From Candidatus Calditenuis fumarioli (GTDB lineage: Archaea; Thermoproteota; Nitrososphaeria_A; Caldarchaeales; Calditenuaceae), in the NCBI GenBank assembly GCA_030059665.1, contig JANVYR010000002.1, forward strand, positions 321,441 to 385,440: 64,000 bases of DNA, read 5' to 3'. Positions within the stretch are counted from its first letter, which is position 1. Every line of letters begins with the position of its first letter. Both the position numbers and the translations under genes were made by a program. The notes below the pieces were generated by a model that was not told the origin of the DNA, ran no database searches, and was given only the letters and a program-made list of their open reading frames with translations. This document shows positions 10,708-64,000 of the stretch, in pieces.

Positions 10708-11001
10708 TCACGACGTCAGGATGAAGAACGCGATCGCGATGCCGTAGATCGCGAGGGCCTCGGCGAACGCCGCGATGATGATGGCGACGGTGCGGAGCTC
10801 CGGCCTCTCGGCGGAAGCGGCGAGACCTGCAGAACCTGCCCTCGATATCGCGAAGCCTGACGCGGCAACGGCCACAGCGAAGGCTATCGCAGCCGAGAAC
10901 GACTTGTCCAACACCGCGGCACCTGCCTGCTCAACCGCGTATGCGAGCTGCAGCAGCCACGCCCCGAGCAGCAGTGCGGGAAGCAACCTCAGAGTCCTCA
11001 T
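10708..11001 (-). CDS. A/V-type ATP synthase proteolipid (c/K) subunit-like protein, solitary
   Basis: Two-helix hairpin. The Gly/Ala-rich helix 1 is followed by ERPEL and a helix-2 carboxylate (AFAEALAIYGIAIAF). No other atp genes are adjacent. Confidence 0.55.
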   Translation of the reverse strand: MRTLRLLPALLLGAWLLQLAYAVEQAGAAVLDKSFSAAIAFAVAVAASGFAISRAGSAGLAASAERPELRTVAIIIAAFAEALAIYGIAIAFFILTS

Positions 11002-11138
11002 GGGTTTTCGCGGATATCACATAAGGGCTATTCTTAAACCTCGTGACGTACGGAATTCCGGCGAAAGGCTCGGGCGATGGGGCTTTCGCAGGAAAGGGAT
11101 AATAGATCGCTGAGGGAGACATCTCGGGGTCGGGAGGA

Positions 11139-41847: not shown

Positions 41848-42661
41848 CTAATTTAGGTGCCATGCGGACCCGATGGCCTCGGGTTGGGACGAGGAGAGCC
41901 CACGGGTCGAGCTGAAGGCAGAGAACAGGGTAGTCACGGAAAAGGCGTGAGGATCGGGAGGGTGGAGCGCTTTGGCATAGGGTGCGCGCCCGGACAGCTC
42001 GGGCGATTGGGAGTGGCGCGCTGAGGGCGTCCGGCTTACGCCTCCGCCCTTACACGCCCACCCCATCAACCCCCTCTTCTAGGGGAGCCCTCGTCGGGGC
42101 CCAAGGCCCGTTGCCGGGCCCTATAGGCCCCGATTGGCCGCCTATTTTTGGGAGGGGCTTCGGGCTTAGATGCTTTCAGCCCTTATCCCCAGGGGCGCGG
42201 CTGCCCGGCGTCGCCCTGTAGGACGACCGGCACACCGTTGGCCCCGGCCCTCCGTTCCTCTCGTACTAGGAGGACCTTGCCCTCAGGCGGCCCGCACCCC
42301 CAGCAGGTAGAATCCGACCTGGCTCACGCCGGTCTAAACCCAGCTCACGTTCCCCTTTGATAGGCGAGCAGCCTCACCCTTGGCCCCTGCTGCGAGGCCA
42401 GGATGGGAAGAGCCGACATCGAGGTACCAAGCCGCGGGGTCGATGGGGACTCTCGCCCGCGACGAGCCTGTTATCCCTGGGGTAACTTTTCTGTCACCAC
42501 CGGCCCCCACTGGTAGGGGCCGATGGATCGCTAGGCCCGGGTTTCCCCTCAGGACCCCTTGCGTTCGAGGGTCCTGTCAGGCCGGCTTTTGCCCTTGCAC
42601 TCTACAGCGGGTTTCTGTCCCGCCTGAGCCGACCTTTGGGCTCCCCCGATATCTTTTCGGG

Positions 42662-42692
<31 letters not shown>

Positions 42693-43534
42693 CCGTTGTC
42701 CCAGGGCACAGGCCCCGGTTAGCGGGACAGCCCCAGGTGGCCGGTGTTACATTGGCGCCTCCCCGGGCCCCCGGAGAGGCCCGGATCGACGGCTCCCGGC
42801 TACGCTATGCACCCAGAGCCATCCCGCAGCGACAGGCTGCAGTAAAGCTCCACAGGGTCTTCTCTCCCCGCTGGGGGTCCGTGGACTGTTCGTCCACGTT
42901 ATGTGGGTTCACGGGGCTCCGGGCCGGGACAGTGGGGCCCTCGTTGATCCATTCGTGCGCGTCGGAACTCACCCGACAAGGCATTTGGCTACCTTAAGAG
43001 GGTCAGGATTACCCCCGGCGCTAGCCGGCCCTTATCCCGGTTGGACCCGGGTTTCAGGTACCGGTGCTGGCCAGGATTGAGAAGCCGTTCAAAGCCTTTC
43101 GGCCTTGCGGCTTCCTATGTTTTTATTAAACAGTCGGGACCCCCTTGTCACTGCGACCTGCCAACCCCTCCTCGTCGGAGAGGAAGGCAGGCACCCCTTC
43201 TCCCGAGGTTACGGGGCCAATTTGCCGAGTTCCCTGGCCCGGAGTCACCCCAGACGCCTTGGCCTTCTCAGCCAGGGGCACCAGTGTCGGATCTAGGTAC
43301 GGTCTCCCGGGATCGTTCCGGACCCCCTTTTCACTGGCTCCAGGGATCGGCCGAAGCGGCATGCGCCGCCCCGTCACGCCTTCACCCGGTTCTCGCCATT
43401 ACGGCCCTCCCCGGGCTTCAGCGCTTGGCCGGAGCTACGGCCCCGGTCGGCCTACCCCGAAGCGTCAGGGGTCCGGCCTGCGTTGCCGCACCTACCCGGG
43501 AGGCGCCGGAATCTTAACCGGCTTCCCCTTCGGC

Positions 43535-44170
43535 CTACCCGGTTAAGGTCGGCCTTAGGACCGGCTTACTCCCGGCTGACGACGCATTGCCGGGAAACCC
43601 GTGCCCTTCCGGCGGAGGGGATTCGAGGAGAGGGAGAAGGGCCGTCCGTTCCCAAAAGGTGAACAAGTCAAGGAGGAAGGAATTGTAAACCCTAATTGAG
43701 AGAGTTCCAAAATTTGAGCGTGATGTTCGCGATCCACGCCTCACTACGGATTTGCGGAATTGCGACAAGGGTATATTCAGCAGATTTGACCAATATCTCT
43801 CCAATTTCTGTACGACCTCGTCACGTTCCCATTTAGCGAGTTTAATTTGCAATCGAGGTTTAATCGCACTTCTCGTCACCCCTAATATCTCCAAAAATTT
43901 GACCATGGCCAGAAGCTTATTAGGGTCGCTATTAACGAATTCGAACCTCGTCTTCACGGTTTTGGGCCTCTTGGTTCCTTCACCTGCGTAGAGGCCTATA
44001 GCGTACCCGAATAAGATCGCGGGGACGAATCGTCGGATAACGATGCTTCCCACCCGGCCGTTTCGGTACTTATATTGAATGATTATCCTGTCGTCCTCAA
44101 TTATCTTCCTAATCACTTTGCTAAAGTTCAAGGTTTCGGGAACCAATTCGGCAATATCTACACAAATCAT
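43535..44170 (-). CDS. LAGLIDADG homing endonuclease (intron-encoded); C-terminal ~30 codons read into 3' exon
   Basis: ILFGYAIGLYAGEGTK is a LAGLIDADG-type motif. ATG at 44170 is inside the intron. Confidence 0.7.
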   Translation of the reverse strand: MICVDIAELVPETLNFSKVIRKIIEDDRIIIQYKYRNGRVGSIVIRRFVPAILFGYAIGLYAGEGTKRPKTVKTRFEFVNSDPNKLLAMVKFLEILGVTRSAIKPRLQIKLAKWERDEVVQKLERYWSNLLNIPLSQFRKSVVRRGSRTSRSNFGTLSIRVYNSFLLDLFTFWERTALLPLLESPPPEGHGFPGNASSAGSKPVLRPTLTG

Positions 44171-44229
44171 GCCCTTTACTTCGTAGATTTGTTTAAGACT
44201 GGTTATTTAAAGATTATTGGACGGCCCTG
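43636..44229 (-). mobile_element. Archaeal rRNA intron (bulge-helix-bulge-like) in 23S domain III-equivalent hairpin
   Basis: A 0.6-kb AT-rich block. Its flanks GAGAGGG[UCA]GGGCCGUC and GACGGCCC[UUCUC]CCUCUC form a long bulged helix. Removing it restores an E. coli-like AAAG-CGGGUGAAAAGCCCG-CUCGCCGGAAG topology. Confidence 0.6.
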
Positions 44230-45911
44230 ACCCTCTCTTTCCCACCCCTCTTCGCTGTCTACTACCACCGGGATCTGCATTGGCGGCCGGTCCACGGGAC
44301 CTCACGGCCCCGCTTCTGCCCAGCCGCCACGCCCCCCTACCCCCACCCGTGCAAGGCACGGGTGAGCCCGGGTTTCGGCGGCCCGCTTAGACCCGTCAAT
44401 TTTCGGGGCCCCCGTCCTCGGCGGGTAAGCTGTTACGCACTTCTTAGCCGATGGCTGCTTCTAAGCCTACGGCCCCGCTGTCTCAGGACGGGGACGCCCT
44501 TCGGTTTGTCACTTAGCGGGCACTTAGGGGCCTTAACCCGAGGTCTGGGTTGTTCCCCTCTCGGTCCTGGAGCTTACCCCCAGTACCCCACTCCCGGGAT
44601 CTACGGCGCCCGCGGGTTCGTAGTTTGAAAGGAGAGCGGGGCCTCATCGGCCCCTTTCTCCCCTATCAGTGCCCTACCCCGCGGGCAACCTCCCCCGGGG
44701 CTGTCCTGCGAGACACTTCGGGGGGAACTAGCTATCACCGGGCTCGGTTAGCTTTTGACTCCTAGCCCCAGGTCAGGGGACCGAATTGCACGTCAGGACC
44801 CCTATTCGGGCCTCGACCGGGGTTTCCCCCGGCTTCACCCTGCCCAGGGCTAGATCGCCCGGTTTCTAGCCTCACGGGCGTGGCTACAGGCCCTTTCGGA
44901 CCCCGCCCCTCGCCGGGGCTAACCCCGGCTGCGGGCGCTCGGTTTCCCTACGCCTCCGGGCTTACAGCCCTTAGACTCGCCACACCCGTGAACTCCCCGG
45001 CCCGTGTTTCAAGACGGAGCGGACGACCCTGGGATTGTCCCCGCGCGGCCCCTTGCGGGGCCTTGACGGGGATTTCCCTTTCGGGCCGCCCTCGTCTGTT
45101 ACCGGCCGGTTTCAGGCGCTTTTCACCCCCCTCTCGGGGTACTTTTCACCTTTCGCTCACGCTACTGGTCCGCTATCGGTCTTGGGACGTATTTAGCCTT
45201 GGAGGCCAGTGGCCCCCAACTTCCCGCACCATATCCGAGGTGCGGTACTCTGGGATCCGGGGCATCACCCATCCGCCCTTCGCCTACGGGGCTGTCACCC
45301 TCTGTGGCCCCCCATTCCAGGGGAGTTCGGCTCGGGCTTCAGGGTGGACCCCCGGCCCTTAACCCCACATTCCCCCTGAGTTTCCCCAGGGGGTTCGGTT
45401 TGGGCTTCTCCCCGTTCGGTCGCCCCTACTAGGGGAATCTCGTTTGATTTCTTCTCCTCCCCCTACTTGGATGCTTCCGTTCGGGGGGTTCCCGATCCCG
45501 GCTCGAGGCCGGGACCGCGGCGAGCCGAAGCCCGCCGCAGGATGTCCCATTAGGAGATCCCCGGATCTACCCCTGCCTGCGGGTACCCGGGGCTTATCGC
45601 AGCTTGCCACGTCCTTCGTCGGCGCCCAAGCCGAGGCATCCACCGGCCGGCGTACCCCTGTCCGGGCCAAGGCGCACCCTATCTTGCCGCGCTCCACCCT
45701 CCCATGACGCGGTCACAGCATGAGCTCCCGCATCCCGCCGTGGGGCCTCCCCCGCGGCGTTCACGCCAACTGGGTATTGTGCAAAAGGACCCTATTAAAC
45801 CATCCGACGAATAAGGCAGTAAAGAGTGCCCAATCATACGGGTCCTGCCAGCCCGTCGCCCCGCTGCCCCTGCAAATGGCAACCCACGACGTCGGACTAA
45901 AATGAAACCCG

Positions 45912-48295: not shown

Positions 48296-48630
48296 GGAGG
48301 CGGCGGGTAGGGCCAGGGGGCTAGCCCTCCCCTTCCCGTAGCGGACCCGAAACGGGCTCACGCGGGGGCCAGCAACCGGCGGCGTACGGCCGCGTTGCGG
48401 GGCTAGGGAAGGCAGGGGGCGGATGAGCGCGCGTCCCGGTGGAGGCGGGTAGGGCCCCACGCCCTCCGTAGGGAGGGCCTCTGGGGTCCGCGCGCGCCGA
48501 ACCGCGTCAGGCCCGGGAGGGAGCAGCGCTAAGGCGCGGCTCGCCTGCTGCCGGGAAAACGTGCGGGACGCTGCCGGCCTGACCGATCCCCGCACCGCGA
48601 CCGGAAACCGCCGGAGCCGCCGCCTCCTAA
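48296..48630 (+). ncRNA. Signal recognition particle RNA (7S/SRP RNA)
   Basis: Helix-8 motif GUCAGGCCCGGGAGGGAGCAGCGCUAAGGCGCGGC matches the 4.5S/7S consensus GGUCAGGUCCGGAAGGAAGCAGCCAAGGCAG. An 11-bp terminal helix pairs GGAGGCGGCGG (48296-306) with CCGCCGCCUCC (48617-627). GGGCUAGCCC-type Alu-domain hairpins are present. Confidence 0.7.
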
Positions 48631-62680: not shown

Positions 62681-62845
62681 TCAGCTGTAGACCTTGAAGC
62701 CCATCAGAGGTGCGACCTCGTTGATGCACCTGCGGCAGATGTAGAGCCTGTACTTCCGGATCACGCCGACGGTGGTCCCGCACCTCCTGCACTTGGCGAC
62801 GCCCTTCCCGAACTTCCTCACCTTCGGAGGCTTCTGCTTCGCCAT
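62681..62845 (-). CDS. Ribosomal protein uS14 (zinc-binding, type Z), solitary
   Basis: MAKQKPPKVRKFGKGVAKCRRCG...ICRRC has four Cys. 54 aa from the ATG at 62845. Confidence 0.8.
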   Translation of the reverse strand: MAKQKPPKVRKFGKGVAKCRRCGTTVGVIRKYRLYICRRCINEVAPLMGFKVYS

Positions 62846-63329
62846 TCCCGTGAGGCTCCGCGAGAACCAGAATAATAACTTCAGACCGCGAACCCCCAGA
62901 AGGTCCTGATGCGGAGGTCGGATCGGTCCCGTCATCGTTGGACCCGAGGACGAGCTCCTCGCCGGAGTCCTCGATGGGTGCCCGCAGGCGGACAGGGGCT
63001 ACTTCGTACGTTGCGGCTGCTGGACGGCTACCCTGAGCCGCTGAGCGAAGGACAGATAATTTGCGCGAGAATGGGCACTGAAGCTTCGCCATCGGAATAC
63101 CAAAAATCACCTCGGTAATACCATTTTTCAGCAACTGATAAGTGCTCTGAATTGAGTTGATATTGAGATTCAATTTTTCGCGCACCGAGCAGCATATATA
63201 AATCACCTATATGAATTTTGCTGAAGATGACCACCGTTATCTTAAAATAGAGGTCAAAAAATTCATTCGTGCGAGGGGGTGGCGCGGCGGGAAGCCGCGC
63301 AGAGCCCGAAAATCCCGGAATAGGGAACG

Positions 63330-63499
63330 GTGATCCTGAGAGAGGGAGTTGAAAGACGAACACCAGGAACATCGCGCCGAGGAGCATGAACCCCTGCTTC
63401 AGTGATCCCGAGAGAGGGAGTCGAAGGTCAAAACTCATTGTTCCCCACCTCCTCTACACCGAAAATCCGCCCTTGATCCGGTGAAAGGGATAGGGAAGG
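63330..63499 (+). CRISPR. CRISPR-like mini-array: 3 units at exact 72-nt period (26-nt repeat, 46-nt spacers), repeats degenerate left-to-right; AT-rich putative leader upstream
   Basis: R1 GTGATCCTGAGAGAGGGAGTTGAAAG (63330-55). R2 GTGATCCCGAGAGAGGGAGTCGAAGG (63402-27) is 23/26 identical. R3 at 63474 is about 17/26 identical. R1 ends in GTTGAAAG, typical of an archaeal crRNA handle. Confidence 0.35.
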
Positions 63500-63604
63500 A
63501 AACTCGGGAAGAGGTGGTGGTCCGGACTGAGGCAGGGGCGATCAGGGGGCGTCAAAACTTTAAGATCGTCTTCCGGTGGTCGACGGAGGTGCGGATGGGG
63601 AAGC

Positions 63605-64000
63605 TTGGTTGAGGTCGAGCTGCTCTACGACTACCCGAGGCTCGAGGAGCGGCTGATCATCGAGCGGCTGAGGGCTAGGGGGGCCGAGGTGACGCTGACG
63701 AACGTCAACGACGTACCGCTGGTGATGGGGGAGCGCGTCGCCGACGTTGCGGTCGTCAGGCCAATCTCGATGTTCAAGGCCATCTACGCCGCGGCCGCGA
63801 GGGAGTCGGCGGGCACGTGGGCCGTCAACAACGCCTCTGCCATCTCCGTCTGCGGCGACAAGGTCCTCTGCCTCTCGCGCATGGCCGCAAGCGGCATACG
63901 CATCCCGAGGACGGTGATCGCGGTCGACAGCAGGTCAGCGGAGCAGGCCTTCAAGGCGTCGCCGAAGCCGGTGGTGGACAAGCCGCCCATCGGGAGCTGG
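63605..64000 (+). CDS. RimK/LysX-family ATP-grasp ligase, 3'-partial at window edge (TTG start inferred)
   Basis: LVEVELLYDYPRLEERLIIERLRARGAEV is a LysX/RimK-like N-terminus. The ORF runs off the window so it is not in the supplied ORF track. Confidence 0.5.
   Translation, partial: MVEVELLYDYPRLEERLIIERLRARGAEVTLTNVNDVPLVMGERVADVAVVRPISMFKAIYAAAARESAGTWAVNNASAISVCGDKVLCLSRMAASGIRIPRTVIAVDSRSAEQAFKASPKPVVDKPPIGSW

Follow-up and report, generated by a model that had tools for sequence, protein, structure and literature searches.

A small CRISPR array with a family-wide leader, probably an eroded remnant, between the uS14 and lysX-like genes of Candidatus Calditenuis fumarioli

The 64,000-nucleotide (nt) stretch analysed here, referred to as the window, comes from Candidatus Calditenuis fumarioli (contig JANVYR010000002.1, positions 321,441 to 385,440). 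Near its end, an interval of about 760 nt between the uS14 ribosomal protein gene and a LysX/RimK-type ATP-grasp gene holds a leader and a very small array of clustered regularly interspaced short palindromic repeats (CRISPR). The segment 63114-63498 of the window is almost certainly a true CRISPR locus, in which a leader of 216 nt is followed by three repeats of 26 nt and the two spacers between them. The features of the interval, followed by the two genes that bound it, are:

63114-63329, plus strand: CRISPR leader, 216 nt, homologous to the leaders of the family arrays described below
63330-63355, plus strand: repeat R1, GTGATCCTGAGAGAGGGAGTTGAAAG, one mismatch to the family consensus (C8T)
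63356-63401, plus strand: spacer 1, 46 nt
63402-63427, plus strand: repeat R2, GTGATCCCGAGAGAGGGAGTCGAAGG, two mismatches to the consensus (T21C, A25G)
63428-63472, plus strand: spacer 2, 45 nt
63473-63498, plus strand: degenerate terminal repeat R3, TTGATCCGGTGAAAGGGATAGGGAAG, 18 of 26 positions matching the family consensus
62681-62845, minus strand: uS14 ribosomal protein gene, 54 amino acids (Pfam Ribosomal_S14)
63605-64000 (window end), plus strand: LysX/RimK-type ATP-grasp gene (LysX_preATP_grasp, RimK), 281 amino acids in full contigs

An initial annotation, made without database searches, had described an orphan CRISPR-like mini-array at this position, flanked by rpS14 and a lysX-like gene, as is indeed the case. 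R1 and R2 begin where it had placed them, at 63330 and 63402, and differ at 3 of 26 positions, all of them transitions; none of 100 shuffles of the window yielded two matches as good as this pair. The exact 72-nt period that had been claimed for all three units holds between R1 and R2, but R2 and R3 are 71 nt apart. R3 is strongly degenerate, as described, but its best placement is 63473 rather than 63474, and of the two spacers given as 46 nt the first has that length whereas the second has 45 nt. A score as high as that of R3, at an allowed spacing, was reached by 6 of 20000 shuffles of the downstream sequence, and no fourth repeat was found. The two spacers are unrelated in sequence, as had been stated, so that three 26-nt repeats alternate with two unrelated spacers of 45-46 nt in the organization of a CRISPR array.

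Mismatches to the consensus climb with distance from the leader (one in R1, two in R2, eight in R3), which is the polarity that had been proposed. The 8-nt handle at the 3′ end of the repeat, GTTGAAAG, is unaltered in R1, and both changes of R2 sit within it. The consensus repeat folds into a 4-base-pair (bp) hairpin (UCCC/GGGA) of -6.2 kcal/mol at 37 °C; the C8T change of R1 converts a C-G pair of this hairpin to a U-G wobble and keeps the hairpin, at -3.6 kcal/mol. Spacer 2 and the leader share a stretch of 10 nt, which prompted the idea that R3 might be a leader-like fragment; the match was not significant, and the idea was dropped. Tandem Repeats Finder reported no array, and an Rfam match to CRISPR-DR17 (E = 2.9) was rejected, being below threshold, on the wrong strand and interrupted by a 24-nt insertion.

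The identity of the locus becomes clear from comparison with a family of arrays that shares the 26-nt consensus repeat GTGATCCCGAGAGAGGGAGTTGAAAG. A genome scan (one genome per species, query GATCCNGAGAGAGGGAGTNGAANG) matched arrays of 2 to 31 exact copies, with 12, 31 and 15 in three Caldarchaeales genomes; the genomes matched were Candidatus Calditenuaceae archaeon JGI OTU-1, Candidatus Calditenuis sp. PSP.bin.8 and Caldarchaeales PSS.bin.6. Together with metagenome loci of Calditenuaceae/Caldarchaeales from hot springs, these arrays form a family survey that comprises, among the matches listed, 2309 repeats in 124 arrays, the longest having 60 repeats. The canonical sequence accounts for 2126 of the 2309 repeats; the R1 variant occurs three further times among them, and the R2 variant not once. 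Surveyed spacers (n = 2185) measure 32-59 nt with a mode of 42 nt, 107 of them being 46 nt long, and both spacer lengths of the window lie within this range. R1 and R2, at one and two mismatches from the consensus, thus carry a repeat common to multi-unit arrays. The initial annotation had named a lack of other copies of the repeat as a ground for refuting its reading; that objection clearly fails, since the family repeat is found in the 124 surveyed arrays. The repeat family is specific to Calditenuaceae/Caldarchaeales.

Two further properties of the family bear on the small array. Degenerate terminal repeats are also present in the arrays of L015 and L018 (loci retrieved for comparison carry L numbers), and the L015 array reaches 33 repeats once its two degenerate terminal repeats are included. 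Many family arrays adjoin housekeeping genes, such as a molybdopterin oxidoreductase operon, replication factor C, topoisomerase and ERCC4, so that a location remote from cas genes is the usual situation in the family. A search for cas genes across the window plus a further 8 kb found none and turned up housekeeping genes only, in agreement with the initial annotation. As a separate observation, an IS605 OrfB/TnpB-type transposase gene (L015 882-2129, minus strand) lies about 2 kb past the trailer end of the 33-repeat array.

The leader provides the second line of comparison. In L012, L014 and L015 the sequence that precedes the first repeat can be aligned with the window leader, and a metagenome scan with the junction pattern AAAATCCCGGAATNGGGNNCNGTGATCC retrieved at least 120 loci, nearly all of which then continue into arrays (the longest with 60 repeats). 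In an alignment of 55 distinct leaders, 63114-63329 aligns with the others, so that a conserved leader stands opposite the degenerate end of the array. The proximal part of about 155 nt (from about 63175) is common to all leaders of the family; the distal part, 63114-63175, is common only to the second leader of the same species (L110) and to L121, and from 63114 on the window leader is 93% identical to L110 and 87% identical to L121. The AT-rich leader of about 270 bp that had been proposed at 63060-63329 is therefore a homologous leader, but its proper extent is 63114-63329; the GC content is low (33-47%) only over about 63050-63270, and the last 60 nt of the leader are GC-rich. A repeat one or two mismatches from that of arrays with up to 60 units, together with a homologous leader, bears out the identification as an orphan CRISPR mini-array. 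Five elements can be recognized within the leader:

63195-63202, plus strand: distal TATA-like box TATATAAA, read from the sequence, a predicted promoter element
63242-63249, plus strand: proximal TATA-like box TTAAAATA, overlapping AAATAG (63245-63250), the predicted array promoter
63269-63274, plus strand: GTGCGA motif, the predicted transcription start region, which opens the GC-rich proximal leader of about 60 nt
63282-63300, plus strand: GC-rich inverted repeat GCGCGGC-GGGAA-GCCGCGC with a 7-bp stem
63309-63329, plus strand: leader-repeat junction element AAAATCCCGGAATAGGGAACG, repeat-like (TCCC..GGGA) and the best-conserved part of the leader

The distal TATA-like box is conserved in position across leader types, where it aligns with TTTTAAAT, ATATAAAT or TTATAAAG. 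AAATAG and GTGCGA are invariant or nearly so across the 55 leaders, and GTGCGA lies about 20-25 nt from the proximal TATA-like box; the usual distance from TATA box to start in archaea is about 20-25 nt. Of the 26 positions that begin at 63309 (the junction element together with the opening 5 nt of R1), 14 agree with the repeat consensus. Over the 55 leaders, 98.4% of cells in the inverted repeat are paired, and the element folds in the predicted transcript. It shows one compensatory change, from C-G to G-C, which is limited to three related leaders of the window lineage and therefore counts as a single event; this is too little to establish an RNA structure, and the element may be an RNA hairpin or a DNA palindrome.

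Three independent Logan assemblies (L008-L010) all end at 63143, 30 nt into the segment that starts at 63114, a shared break that we attribute to k = 31 unitigs entering multi-copy leader sequence. A search of IMG/VR viruses for the W-type distal leader found it absent. Upstream of the leader, the 268 nt between it and the uS14 start (62846-63113) have a GC-rich middle and hold no identified feature; this stretch is without counterpart in the uS14-lysX spacer of the sister lineage.

Comparison of strains and relatives concerns the activity of the array. The same three repeats and two spacers are present in seven other assemblies, and over 1400 nt just three single-nucleotide differences occur: at 63322, which is variable among leaders, at 63494 within R3, and at 63514. 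Hot-spring MAGs (metagenome-assembled genomes) that carry this window include GCA_038841625.1 and GCA_038868555.1. The ten contigs obtained by way of the uS14 protein are all of the same species, at 99.8% identity, and are informative on stasis only. Spacers do not vary from strain to strain in the seven other assemblies, which bears on the activity of the locus and not on its identity; among the sampled strains there is no sign of current spacer uptake at the window array. In the sister lineage OTU-1 (L018 1-900; L014 6171-6478; L109) an array lies between an upstream gene and the uS14 3′ end, and the order of uS14 and array is therefore swapped relative to the window. The uS14-lysX spacer of this lineage is only about 100 nt long. 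The uS14-adjacent arrays of OTU-1 in three samples have 4, at least 5 and 16 repeats, and their spacer sets are entirely different.

A second locus of the same kind is found in the same assemblies:

L110 1266-1507, and L143 about 10792-11047: second leader with a solo repeat, one canonical repeat and zero spacers

It sits between a coenzyme A (CoA)-transferase paralogue and an amidohydrolase_2 gene (L110, L143-L152), in an intergenic region of 813 nt that shows at most one base difference among ten assemblies. It shares with the window array the lineage-specific leader (93% identity from 63114) and the minimal size, and differs in its single canonical repeat, its lack of spacers and its gene neighbours. 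Relatives L064, L106 and L085, whose amidohydrolase is 84-86% identical, carry 20-27 repeats at this site. Because relatives have larger arrays at both sites, the uS14 and amidohydrolase sites look like ancestral array positions that collapsed in C. fumarioli. As an aside, a tRNA-like sequence (GGGCCGGTAGATCAGCGG...TTCGAGTCCCGCCCGGTCCAC, on one strand) was recognized by eye at about 11400-11480 of L143, between the amidohydrolase gene and the second leader.

The repeat family to which the small array belongs has cas neighbours in other species. A Csa1 gene adjoins the L015 leader, with its canonical repeat (Pfam E = 2.9e-61), and arrays of a 3-mismatch repeat variant are flanked by Csa1 and Cas4 in L140-L142. 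Operons of type I-A are present in more distant Caldarchaeales (L138, L139, L153, L154), and the gene set of these distant relatives is complete (Csa5, Cas7, Cas5, Cas3′, Cas3″, Cas6, Csa3, Csa1, Cas1, Cas2, Cas4). The repeats of L138 and L139 (GC 46-51%) differ from the family and have only the ...GGAATTGAAAG end in common with it; among the retrieved loci, no complete I-A operon was seen beside a canonical repeat. In L140 (about 1945-2113; also L141 and L142; Caldarchaeales, 49% GC) we also note a degenerate three-unit mini-array of a related repeat beside Csa1, in a species that has an 18-repeat array adjoining Cas4 as well.

Family spacers also point to a target. About 45 of them match the virus contig L156 (IMGVR_UViG_3300025067_000009; 14.6 kb, 47% GC) on both strands at 88-100% identity. 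Of 35 protospacers, 30 have C at position -3 of the 5′ flank and 29 have C at position -2, giving 5′-CCN; the 3′ flanks gave no motif signal. CCN is the known motif of type I-A systems, and its 5′ position independently confirms the orientation of the repeats. These matches show the repeat family to be an active antiviral system with a type I-A-like 5′-CCN motif. L156 ends in a single canonical repeat right after a methylase-like open reading frame (ORF) and without a leader; it looks like a virus/array chimera, formed where the assembly crossed from a protospacer to an array. The spacers of the window fared differently from those of the family: the initial annotation had suggested comparing them with viral and plasmid databases, and neither matched INPHARED phages or PLSDB plasmids (best E = 0.3), IMG/VR (exact 22-23-mer halves), or the window, the retrieved loci and L156.

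The closest parallels are the type I-A arrays, with co-resident type III systems, of thermophilic Thermoproteota such as Saccharolobus/Sulfolobus and Thermoproteus tenax. The Calditenuaceae family resembles them in its short, weakly structured repeats (24-26 nt, ending (A/G)TTGAAAG), in spacers of about 37-46 nt and a 5′-CCN motif (seen here at the level of the family), in scattered chromosomal arrays with one conserved leader, and in a Csa1-Cas1-Cas2-Cas4 adaptation cassette, here found in relatives. It differs in the repeat itself (GTGATCCCGAGAGAGGGAGTTGAAAG), in the handle, GUUGAAAG instead of AUUGAAAG, and in matching no Rfam CRISPR-DR model; the window copy differs further in having three repeats only, two of them mutated. 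With the large arrays of its own family (OTU-1, PSP.bin.8, PSS.bin.6 and metagenomes; L011-L137) the window locus shares the repeat (0-2 mismatches), leader, junction motif, orientation and degenerate terminal repeats. The large arrays, however, reach 60 repeats, turn over between samples and match a virus, whereas the window copy has two spacers and none of these properties.

Isolated arrays without adjacent cas genes are assigned evidence level 1 by CRISPRCasFinder, and many small CRISPR-like candidates are false positives. Orphan and degenerate arrays of this sort are reportedly discussed by Zhang and Ye (2017), a work cited in PMC10547907. The window locus is like them in its few repeats, its trailer-ward mutations and its lack of cas genes in the window or 8 kb beyond; it is set apart from mere candidates by the family-wide homology of repeat and leader, and from orphan arrays in that C. 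fumarioli is reported to carry cas loci elsewhere (PMC10547907).

The species was described by Balbay et al. (2023), with 146_bin.25 (GCA_030059665.1) as type metagenome-assembled genome (MAG) (PMC10547907). Proteins recorded under its name are identical to those encoded by the uS14 and slipin genes of the window. According to their Supplementary Tables 8 and 9, the type MAG has a complete subtype I-A locus, including cas6, at 266,324-276,877 of NODE_5, flanked by arrays of 19 and 14 spacers, and a subtype III-D locus on NODE_2; Cas6 genes are in the list, and there are seven arrays in total, each of at least four spacers (PMC10547907). Three of the seven begin at 240,782, 264,665 and 276,955 of NODE_5, and four at 117,897, 307,403, 362,136 and 490,331 of NODE_2. 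That survey retained only high-evidence arrays, which explains the absence of the two-spacer window locus from its list. It also places CRISPR-Cas proteins among the gene clusters that are unique to the type MAG relative to two hot-spring MAGs of the species (PMC10547907).

How the small array might work can be outlined by analogy. The proximal TATA-like box (63242-63249) would direct a transcript from near 63271, about 60 nt upstream of R1, and the predicted transcript would open with a structured leader of about 60 nt. As in type I-A/III biology, Cas6 may cut 8 nt from the 3′ end of the repeat, between A18 and G19; the end GTTGAAAG is well conserved among the surveyed family repeats, and the position of the cleavage site is taken from other systems. 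The resulting CRISPR RNAs (crRNAs) would carry a 5′ GUUGAAAG handle and would join effector complexes whose genes lie elsewhere in the genome. For spacer 1, both the GUUGAAAG handle and the repeat remnant at the 3′ end would be canonical; for spacer 2, the crRNA would start with a mutated handle, GUCGAAGG, and finish in degenerate R3 sequence. Provided that the repeat is recognised by the resident Cas6, at most one normal crRNA, that of spacer 1, would be expected.

Two explanations of the repeated units dispense with a CRISPR array altogether. One concerns an ORF on the opposite strand:

63028-63438, minus strand: ORF, open for 136 amino acids in the window

The 72-nt periodicity could on this account belong to a small protein gene (114-136 amino acids according to which start codon is used) in which LPLSGS recurs. 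In public annotations a protein of 114 or 119 amino acids is called over the leader and repeats in five of seven contigs (e.g. L001 9474-9818, L005 7546-7905), but the other two omit it, the ORF matches no Pfam family, and LPLSGS is what the CRISPR repeat yields when translated in reverse complement. Moreover, the ORF traverses a non-coding leader that is conserved as DNA before more than 120 arrays in unrelated contexts. The possibility of a degraded protein-coding repeat, raised by the initial annotation as a point that would tell against an array, is thus very improbable; we regard it as effectively refuted and the ORF as spurious. The other explanation takes the units for a direct repeat that arose by chance or serves in regulation, such as transcription-factor sites of lysX, or for a local tandem duplication. 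The fact that only two good copies exist, 180-280 nt upstream of lysX, would suit it, as would the lack of significant results from Tandem Repeats Finder and Rfam. However, an identical 26-mer family with a homologous leader occurs in hundreds of arrays, and the unrelated spacers rule out a simple tandem duplication. In OTU-1 the uS14-lysX spacer lacks the element, the array being on the other side of uS14, which implies that lysX does not need it. Comparison with relatives already refutes this explanation, and we give it practically no weight.

With an array accepted, the question is whether it is vestigial or served in trans, the two options that the initial annotation had offered. We think it likely that the locus is best described as an eroded, static remnant. 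Against this, both spacers might still give rise to active crRNAs for I-A and/or III-D effectors, the array being fully functional and small through rare uptake. The leader is intact and highly conserved, R1 is a single wobble-compatible mismatch from the consensus and its variant occurs in other arrays, family arrays normally lie far from cas genes, and the type genome is reported to have I-A and III-D loci and Cas6 genes (PMC10547907). We nevertheless consider full function unlikely: R2 has two handle changes in a variant found in none of 2309 surveyed family repeats, R3 is heavily degenerate, spacer content is unchanged across seven other assemblies whereas the arrays beside uS14 in the sister lineage have no spacers in common, and no target turned up for either spacer by an approach that yielded about 45 protospacers for other family spacers. 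A still more doubtful proposal is that both minimal loci, with three repeats and with one, are kept by selection, either as integration sites on stand-by or as small-RNA genes driven by the leader; such selection would explain why a 216-nt leader is 93% identical between them and invariant among strains despite collapsed arrays.

Several points count against the interpretation as an eroded remnant. The two loci of the genome have leaders of 93% identity, and the strains share the leader unchanged; conservation of this degree would agree with recent duplication but equally with continued use. R1 is near-canonical, and spacer 1 may therefore still give a working crRNA. The array has two to three units only, which makes the usual array statistics weak when taken alone. 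The genome scan, with one genome per species, gave no C. fumarioli record, and the search for Csa1 homologues reached other species only (L138, L139, L140-L142, L153). No Csa1 turned up within the accession blocks of C. fumarioli proteins. Among the 888 matches of a Cas7 profile search none was identifiable as C. fumarioli, and the one examined further (P0230) came from a different genome. On balance the array looks eroded and static, in a species whose type genome reportedly has I-A and III-D systems.

Two other observations were made in the window. The 23S ribosomal RNA (rRNA) gene (41987-45668, minus strand) is about 700 nt longer than the Rfam model of the archaeal large subunit (LSU) and contains a low-GC block (43-50%, against about 65% around it), the segment of main interest being 43535-44250. 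Within this block, an ORF of 211 amino acids (43535-44170, minus strand) has no Pfam or PDB sequence match; an rRNA intron that encodes an endonuclease-like protein is the probable explanation. At 48476-48562 (plus strand) the model of the bacterial small signal recognition particle (SRP) RNA matches this archaeal genome with 42 bits, the gathering score being 40 bits, and the match may represent only the conserved core of the archaeal SRP RNA.

Finally, we consider what the small array contributes. Nothing about it would surprise a CRISPR specialist, and its value is mainly for annotation: it is a true CRISPR array missed by Tandem Repeats Finder and Rfam, of a kind that standard scanners would miss, several public MAGs carry a spurious protein of 114-119 amino acids over it, and it is absent from the published survey of the species, which was confined to high-evidence arrays with at least four spacers. 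It also illustrates, neatly and on a small scale, how arrays erode at conserved positions of the chromosome, with three repeats at the uS14 site where the sister lineage has 4-16, and one at the amidohydrolase site where relatives have 20-27. As by-products, the analysis defines a Calditenuaceae repeat family, the anatomy of its leader, its CCN motif and one target virus contig, and these could help connect hot-spring viruses to their Caldarchaeales hosts.

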